Shown here: positions 51,001 through 53,597 of the stretch, one piece after another
Position numbering within the stretch: position 1 is the stretch's first letter
Layout: every line of letters begins with the position of its first letter
Assembly (NCBI GenBank): GCA_028867135.1
Contig: JAGWGW010000001.1
Coordinates: 1 to 53,597, forward strand
Direction of reading: 5' to 3'
Length of the DNA stretch: 53,597 nucleotides
Source of the DNA: Candidatus Micrarchaeota archaeon
GTDB lineage: Archaea; Micrarchaeota; Micrarchaeia; Micrarchaeales; CABMGC01
Position numbers: made by a program

Positions 51001-53597
51001 GATGGATTCGTCAAGCTCCTTCTTGAGATTCTCAATCTTCTCAGAAAGCTCCTTAGGTATCTTCTCCTTGTAGTCCTTGAGGGTTTTCTCGGTCATGTAG
51101 GACAGCGACTCTGCATCGTTCTTGATTTGCGCCTGCTCCAGAAACGCCTTGTCCTCAGCTGCGTACTGCTCAGCCTCCTTTACCTTCTTCTCTATGTCAT
51201 CCCTGTTCATCTTGTTCGGCGCGACGACCCGCATCGACTGCTCCTTGCCCGTTGCCTTGTCCTTCGCGTTGACATGCAGTATGCCGTTGGCGTCGATGTC
51301 GAACGTGACCTCTATCTGCGGAACCCCTCTTCTTGCAGGAGGGAGTCCTGTAAGGGAGAAGCTCCCCAGCAGTATGTTGTCCTTTGCGGATGTCCTCTCA
51401 CCCTGCAGTATCTTTATGTCAACAGCAGGCTGGTTGTCCTCGGCTGTAGAGAATACCTGCGTCTTCTTTATCGGTATCGTTGTATTCCTGTCTATGAGCC
51501 TTGTCATGACCCCCCCAAGGGTCTCTATTCCTAGGGATAGCGGCGTGACATCGAGAAGGACTATGTCCTTCACCTCCCCTGTGAGCACTCCTGCCTGCAC
51601 AGCTGCACCGAAAGCCACAGCTTCCATCGGGTCTACACCCCTCTCTATCTTCTTTCCCAGGAGCTGCTCCACGTATCTCTGCACTATCGGCATCCTGGTA
51701 GGCCCTCCTACAAGTATCACCTTGTCTATGCCGCTTGGCTCGAGCTTTGCATCCTTTAGCGCCTGCACCACGGGCTTTGTAGTCTTATCCACTATGGGGA
51801 GCACTATCTCCTCGAGCTTCGCCCTGCTGAGCGTGTGGGTGAAGTGCACAGGCGAGTTGCCTGCGCCCATTGTAAGGAAAGGCAGGTTTATCTCGCTTGA
51901 GAGCGTCGTTGAAAGCTCTATCTTTGCCTTCTCCGCGGCTTCCCTCAGCCTCTGCATCGCCTGGCTGTCCTTCGATATGTCTATTCCGGAATCCTTCTTT
52001 ACCTGCTCAAGCAGATAAGCCACAACTGAATTGTCCATGTCTGTGCCTCCGAGCTTGGTATCGCCGCTTGTCGACCTTACCTCGAAGACGCCCTTCCCGA
52101 ACTCCATGATCGTGACATCAAGAGTCCCGCCTCCGAAGTCGTACACGAGTATCTTCATGTCCTTTCCGGTCTTGTCCACACCGTAAGCAAGTGCAGCGGC
52201 TGTCGGCTCGTTCACGAGCCTTACAACCTCAAGCCCCGCTATCTCTCCTGCATCCTTGGTTGCCTGCCTCTGGTTGTCGTTGAAGTATGCAGGCACTGTT
52301 ATGACCGCTTTCTTGACCTCCTCCCCAAGGAATGCCTCGGCGTCCTTCTTTATCTTCTGCAACAGTATCGCCGAAAGCTCCTGGGGCGTGTAGTCCTTGC
52401 CTAGTATCTTGTACTTGTAGCTCTCCCCCATCCTTCTCTTGAAAGCCGTTACCGTGCCGTCTGGGTTAGCAACAGCCTGCCTCTTGGCGGGCTCTCCCAC
52501 AAGCCTGTCTCCATTCTTCGTGAATGCTACGTAGCTTGGGAATGACTTGCCGTATAGCGATGTTCCTTCAGCGCTAGGTATTAGCACAGGTCTTCCTCCT
52601 TCCAGTACTGCCGCAGCGCTATTACTCGTCCCAAGGTCGATTCCTACGATTTTGCTCATATTCTCACCTATTGTTTTTCCTCTTTTTCTCCCTTCTTTGC
52701 CGCGCCCTTCGATATCATCACAGACGCAGGCCTTAACATGATGTCATTGAGCATGTAACCTTTCCTTATTACCTCTATTATCGTTCCTTCGGGTTTTTCG
52801 CTCTCCTTTGCGAGCATTATCTCGTGCTTGTACGGGTCGAAATTTCCGTCGGCGTCTATCTCCTTCAGCCCCAGCGACTTCAGCGAGCTCATGAAATTCG
52901 AGAATATCAACGCAACGCCCCTGGAGCCCTCGTCATTCTTCATCGACTCGATTGCAAGCTCAAATTCATCCAGTGTTGGCAGCAGCTTTGTTATCGCCTC
53001 TGCCTTTCCTATGCTCCTTGCACTCTCGGATTCCTTTGCAACCCTTTTCTTGTAGTTGTCGAATTCGGCAGCGAGCCTGAGCAGTCTGTCCTTTACCGCT
53101 GCGGCGTCCTCCTGCTCCTCTTTCTCCTTTCCGTTCTTTTTGACGTCTTCATTCTTGCTATTGTCTTCTTCCTTTCCTTCTTCCATAAGCATTCTCCTCG
53201 AACAACGTATCCATCTTCTGGGCGAACTCTATGAGCCTGCTGAACTCTCTTTCAATGTCTGCCTGCAACTCCTGCATCGTGCTCTCCATGTCATCGGATC
53301 TTAGGTAATATTTCCTGCCTTTTCTCACCACGAGGCCAGAGTATATGAACCTGTTCAAATGGTATATCACTGTGCTTCGCGGCACCGAGAGCTTCTCATT
53401 CAGCACCTTGCTCGTTACCCCGGAGCCGTTTATGCTGCTTGCGACTATCTCCTTGAATATGGTAGGCTCGACATCGTCTCCCTTCTTGGTTCCTATGTCG
53501 AATACCTGACAGAAGTACTGAAGGAGGGCTTCCTGGCTCTCCTTTCCAGGCTTGCCTATCTGCCTTATTACTATCTTCTCCTCTCCGGCCATACAAC

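Follow-up and report, generated by a model that had tools for sequence, protein, structure and literature searches.

What controls the dnaK, groESL and clpB operons of archaea appears to be an open question: in the portions consulted of papers from 2022-2023, Phr and HSR1 are the only archaeal heat-shock regulators named, and key chaperones are left out of their regulons (PMC9133787, PMC10653856). A small winged-helix gene heads a grpE-dnaK-dnaJ operon in Candidatus Micrarchaeota archaeon, at the end of the stretch of DNA analysed (the window; positions 1 to 53,597 of contig JAGWGW010000001.1, 53,597 nt). The evidence points to an unnamed archaeal winged-helix-turn-helix (wHTH) family that likely recognises a 19-bp palindrome in the promoters of chaperone genes and likely keeps these repressed until it is released by heat or folding stress. 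A candidate protein and a predicted operator are now available in three phyla.

The regulator, its operon and its chaperone partners

The survey's finding placed a 144-aa wHTH gene first in the operon, and this is confirmed by the open reading frame and by Pfam. The four genes lie on the minus strand in the order regulator (53158..53592), grpE (PF01025, 52668..53186), dnaK (PF00012, 613 aa, 50818..52659) and dnaJ (239 aa, 50084..50803, with a J domain and zinc finger by domain search). The start of grpE overlaps the final 29 nt of the regulator gene, and GAGGAG stands 7 nt before the grpE ATG at 53186; the overlap accounts for the basic tail at the regulator's C terminus. The C-terminal substrate-binding domain is absent from this dnaJ. 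Of eight relatives checked, four share this short dnaJ (about 232-241 aa) and four have a full-length one (about 364-375 aa), so the short form characterises the lineage and does not stem from an assembly error. In two genomes of the same family a LAGLIDADG endonuclease gene is found between grpE and dnaK (L325:1384-2316 and L326:5017-5958). The divergent gene upstream of the regulator is of the Thy1 family and is not a chaperone. HSP20, GroES, ClpB and full-length HSR1-type genes were not found in the study genome (94% complete), and a sigma-70 scan gave no match, as expected in an archaeon.

The protein had been described as lacking a named family, with weak Lrs14/MarR-type matches, and this holds: no family cut-off is reached in Pfam or NCBIfam, where only weak MarR_2, Lrs14 and Sta1 matches appear. 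The AlphaFold model, built from 124 sequences (pLDDT 93.6), comprises an N-terminal arm with a helix (residues 20-30), a wHTH domain (41-98) and a long helix (102-143). Structure searches return generic wHTH matches, tied with one another and mainly over residues 33-98; the fold search gave no match at E 0.001 or better, and no solved structure stands out over the whole protein. The ArsR/SmtB, Lrs14 and MarR families share the common wHTH core and give weak profile and fold matches. Membership of ArsR/SmtB was rejected on the lack of an NF033788 match for the regulator and on orthologue scores of 23-28 bits against a cut-off of 55, and membership of Lrs14 on a score of 17.8 bits against the NF040939 cut-off of 90. 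Some orthologues score above the cut-off of the generic HTH_5 model and carry an ArsR annotation. A profile search collects 364 clusters (50% identity), whose named members come from Micrarchaeota, Diapherotrites, Woesearchaeota and methanogens.

Within its own phylum, 160 of 200 genomes have a regulator profile match (coordinates listed for 149) and 142 have GrpE. The regulator lies within 1.5 kb of grpE in 139 of these 142, a count separate from the survey's 27 of 27. The three exceptions are a grpE cut at a contig end (G110), genes on separate contigs (G685) and a paralogue-type match only (G089). Nine family groups without a regulator match are also without a GrpE match. Eight listed regulator matches occur without GrpE, and among the five examined four adjoin hsp20 and one heads cdc48.

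The survey's reading of the protein as the regulator of the Hsp70 system in Micrarchaeota is right about the linkage to the dnaK operon but too narrow, as the family extends to a second phylum and to methanogens and has partners beyond grpE. Of 201 genomes of the second phylum (0.5-2.1 Mb, including G155), which we infer to be Woesearchaeota-like, 162 have a match; 24 of the 30 best loci have a chaperone gene next to the regulator, in most cases a divergent grpE or hsp20. Genes for DUF3467 and PF03692 (CxxCxxCC) proteins recur within the grpE-dnaK operons of this phylum (L165, L175, L282, L283 and others). In the Methanosarcina phylum a full-length match occurs in 42 of 251 genomes, with one further split match (G194); weak matches in six Halobacteriota genomes were rejected as other HTH proteins. 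The methanogens are Methanosarcinales/Methanomicrobiales, and their clusters include Methanosarcina, Methanolobus, Methanococcoides, Methanofollis and Methanoculleus. All 42 loci are divergent from a chaperone operon (30 groES-groEL, nine clpB, three hsp20). Among 29 named methanogen loci, which overlap that set (at least L092 is L128), 26 face groES, two clpB and one hsp20. The regulator can be tested through its orthologues in two species amenable to genetics, Methanosarcina acetivorans (AAM04072.1, Q8TT11) and M. mazei (AAM31492.1), where the annotation does not go beyond ArsR or hypothetical.

Over six partly overlapping sets of best matches, in which related genomes are not independent, a chaperone gene lies no more than 700 bp from the regulator in 163 of 171 loci; the partner varies by locus (grpE, hsp20, cdc48, htpX, groES-groEL or clpB). 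The loci without such a neighbour are six of the 30 from the second phylum and two of 40 distant Micrarchaeota loci, the latter belonging to a paralogue group. The counts take in the unpublished genomes G086 and G694, and no claim depends on those two alone. This more distant paralogue group comprises L070 and L320 (also L068, L159 and L321); it heads an HMG-CoA reductase gene in L070 and a similar-looking gene in L320, with no chaperone there. In two loci of small-genome archaea, L319 and L099, there is an additional copy of methanogen type that diverges from (hsp20-)groES-groEL. L099 is labelled Methanosarcinales, yet its phylum group consists of small genomes. The grouping of these second copies with methanogen sequences (support 0.99) suggests cassette transfer.

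The predicted operator and its distribution

The predicted operator of the study genome is a 19-bp dyad, TTTCAA-N7-TTGGAA, on the minus strand at contig positions 53654-53636. It reads TTTCAAC-TTTTT-CTTGGAA (or, divided otherwise, TTTCAA-CTTTTTC-TTGGAA), and ends 11 nt before TTTATATA (contig 53624-53617) and about 4 nt before GCAAATA (contig 53631-53625). From the general archaeal promoter consensus we take the former to be the TATA box and the latter a BRE-like element, both on the minus strand. All three elements lie beyond the end of the window, and the sole part of the promoter region inside it is the expected transcription start (53593..53597, minus strand). In archaea, transcription is expected to start about 30 nt after the start of the TATA box; here the ATG follows it by 32 nt, and the regulator mRNA is likely leaderless. 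The survey had described a TTCAAC-N5-GTTGAA-type palindrome 60 nt upstream, just before the TATA box. The element is there, beyond chance, and TTCAAC begins 61 nt before the ATG, but the right arm is not GTTGAA: as TTTCAA-N7-TTGAAA the dyad is imperfect, matching 11 of 12 positions, and the BRE-like element intervenes before the TATA box.

The dyad ranks first in a matrix scan of the 961-kb genome, with 23.5 bits against 16.6 for the next site, the matrix having been derived from 11 same-family relatives with the study genome left out. Its score is not attained in any of 2000 shuffles of the 170 nt upstream. When each relative is left out in turn, the site score is attained by none of 300 shuffles in ten of the 11 and by 24 of 300 in one. 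The gap between the end of the dyad and the TATA box is 10-13 nt throughout this family. No second site near 23.5 bits was found genome-wide, and across the order the best score is 9.7 bits upstream of the thermosome (31 regions) and 9.3 for unlinked hsp20 genes, whereas the site at the regulator scores 20.2. The regulon is narrow in the study genome and its order.

Upstream of the regulator, a de novo search of seven lineage sets recovers a 6-7-6 dyad every time, always with a 7-bp centre; the dyads score 12.5-20.8 bits, shuffled sequences 7.3-9.0. The half-sites are TTTCAA in the regulator's own family, TGTCAA in a sister family (there with a second, weaker tandem copy 19 nt further along), TGTTAA or TTTTAA in other Micrarchaeota, TGTTGA in the second phylum and TATCGA in methanogens. 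The recognition helix also varies by lineage (PRSTVIYHL, TRGAVVYHL, NRITCLHHL, SRGTVVHHL, PSRVNHHV). This is consistent with co-variation of helix and half-site but does not prove it, because kin share both.

In the second phylum, an exact 17-bp pattern derived from loci of the same phylum occurs at 38 sites in 33 of 101 genomes, and its reversed control at none. The sites fall in 33 of the 81 genomes with a regulator and in none of the 20 without. While 23 sites adjoin the regulator gene, 15 have no regulator in the locus, and 14 of these 15 precede grpE-dnaK, hsp20, groES-groEL or cdc48 operons. The remaining one is a perfect match before a TFE-alpha gene (L313:1502-1518, genome G478). Five genomes were chosen for their unlinked regulator: sites are found at chaperone operons in three, and no match to the pattern in two; the same check gave one extra, one-mismatch match inside a coding region. 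Across lineages, predicted sites precede hsp20, groES-groEL, clpB, cdc48 and htpX as well as grpE. With the methanogen matrix, the Methanosarcina grpE, hsp20 and cdc48 loci score at most 4.6, against 17.7-27.2 for the training sites, and two Methanolobus grpE promoters score 6.6-7.1, with no strong site.

Site position and the sign of control

The predicted site lies just upstream of the BRE at the promoter of the regulator-grpE-dnaK-dnaJ operon, so that the regulator would control its own operon. It likely binds as a dimer, as the dyad suggests, and such a dimer would occupy the 19-bp palindrome at chaperone promoters, repress them while bound and be released by heat or protein-folding stress. 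Here repression would probably act through hindering TFB.

The position of the sites relative to the promoter bears on the sign of control. Of 17 unlinked sites in the second phylum, 15 begin 20-35 nt past the start of the TATA box and lie across the position where transcription should start, an arrangement that speaks for repression. In the sister family the dyads lie over the start of hsp20 genes that diverge from the regulator, and in another group they abut the TATA box. The methanogen dyads lie mostly 11-14 nt before the TATA box of the regulator and 11-12 or about 32 nt before that of the chaperone operon (53 nt in three). One promoter (L307) carries a site upstream of the BRE, spaced as in the study genome, together with a site over the start. 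At L216, L224-L227 and L231, hsp20 and the regulator-grpE-dnaK operon seem to share one two-way TATA box.

Archaeal activators, as described in the portions consulted of two papers, typically bind upstream of the BRE (PMC5512572, PMC4158304). The same dyads might therefore serve a dual regulator, activating where the site lies upstream of the BRE by recruiting TFB/TBP (at the study operon and at methanogen groES-groEL and clpB) and repressing where it lies over the start. The spacing of dyad and TATA box is fixed in Micrarchaeales and methanogens, at 10-13 or 32 nt (about two or four helical turns from the centre to the box), the BRE of the study genome is imperfect, and TrmB-family proteins are described, in part of one of these papers, as changing sign with position (PMC4158304). 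Nevertheless, dual control is unlikely: at the shared promoters a single bound state would have to repress hsp20 while activating dnaK, and L307 carries both site positions at one promoter. On both grounds repression is favoured throughout.

Considerably more doubtful is that the regulator represses these operons in response to redox state, a metal or the like, sensed through a W-x-C motif in its first helix, and not to heat or unfolded protein. Its fold neighbours are ArsR-like, and among 124 sequences Trp at position 26 is conserved in 86% and Cys28 in 65%. The cysteine is not invariant, however, and all unlinked exact sites but one precede protein-quality-control genes. Least credible is an autoregulated passenger of chaperone loci whose dyad serves its own promoter only, a reading suggested by the discovery of most sites beside the regulator gene and by the study genome's only strong site being the regulator's own, but largely refuted by the exact-pattern sites away from the regulator, 14 of 15 before chaperone operons, and by a neighbour that varies yet remains a chaperone.

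Repression relieved by stress is thus the reading carried forward. That a dedicated regulator has its own palindromic predicted site at the dnaK operon, as the survey proposed, is supported by the rank of the dyad in the matrix scan, by the linkage to grpE and by the unlinked chaperone sites. The system itself is confirmed as real, conserved and broader than first noted, and its interpretation as a regulator is partly supported.

Relation to Phr/HSR1 and HrcA

Phr of Pyrococcus furiosus and HSR1 of Archaeoglobus fulgidus (arCOG01684) are presented, in the portions consulted of three papers, as autoregulated wHTH heat-shock regulators with hsp20 and cdc48 among their targets (PMC9133787, PMC5852551, PMC10653856). 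The regulator model shares their winged-helix fold, and the A-N7-T core of the HSR1 site, CTAAC-N5-GTTAG, is spaced as in the TTTCAAC-N5-GTTGAAA of the present family. For the Phr/HSR1 arrangement, a palindrome at or after the transcription start of heat-shock genes, the picture is mixed: 15 of the 17 unlinked second-phylum sites follow it, and the study-genome site, upstream of the BRE, does not. Proteins of the present family have 135-145 aa, an N-terminal arm and a single long helix at the C terminus, whereas Phr/HSR1 have 200-230 aa; the predicted targets, unlike theirs, include the dnaK, groESL and clpB operons. The profile match between the family and HSR1-type proteins covers the HTH only (probability 88%, 13% identity). 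The Phr model NF053602 does not match the 144-aa regulator or three orthologues, and matches HSR1-type proteins at 1e-24 to 1e-28. The Phr structure 2p4w (Z 9.0, rmsd 3.3, 77 residues aligned) is tied with many unrelated wHTH proteins. An HSR1-type gene in G327, which heads cdc48-hsp20 and has CTAAC-N5-GTTAG 8 nt after its TATA box, matches 2p4w at E 6.5e-21. In a FastTree phylogeny of 63 sequences the family is a separate group on a long branch, next to the HSR1-type sequences. Methanosarcina hadiensis has both, an HSR1-type gene heading cdc48-hsp20-hsp20 and a regulator-family gene facing groES-groEL. The HTH-only similarity, the negative NF053602 result and this separate HSR1-type gene rule out identity with Phr/HSR1. 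In the study genome, an HSR1-type profile finds only partial HTH matches elsewhere (best E 8.7e-7) and no full-length gene.

The regulator is likely a repressor of archaeal chaperone genes of a kind not described so far, separate from Phr and HSR1. The family was not found in the literature searched; supplements and most older Methanosarcina heat-shock papers fall outside that scope, and a prior mention is possible.

In bacteria, control of dnaK, groESL and clpB is exerted by HrcA, HspR and CtsR. On balance we lean towards regarding the present family as a third, widespread archaeal heat-shock family, a dedicated switch for bacterial-type chaperones (DnaK-GrpE-DnaJ, GroES-GroEL, ClpB) that would have replaced these three regulators, would split the work with HSR1/Phr in methanogens, would add hsp20 and cdc48 in DPANN without HSR1, and may have moved between methanogens and DPANN with groESL. 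The conserved predicted regulon is retained in reduced DPANN genomes. The survey saw the protein in the place of HrcA, and in role and position the two agree: each is encoded by the first gene of a grpE-dnaK-dnaJ operon with an inverted repeat at its promoter. The kinship does not hold, since no HrcA match appears in Pfam or NCBIfam at E up to 1, and the archaeal Phr/HSR1 are the nearer analogues. HrcA is more than twice the size of the regulator, and its CIRCE element is a 9-9-9 inverted repeat; the dyads of the present family are 6-7-6, have arms unrelated to CIRCE and stand at BRE/TATA promoters. In its presumed action the regulator resembles Phr/HSR1, and its place in the operon is that of HrcA, but it is a member of neither family.
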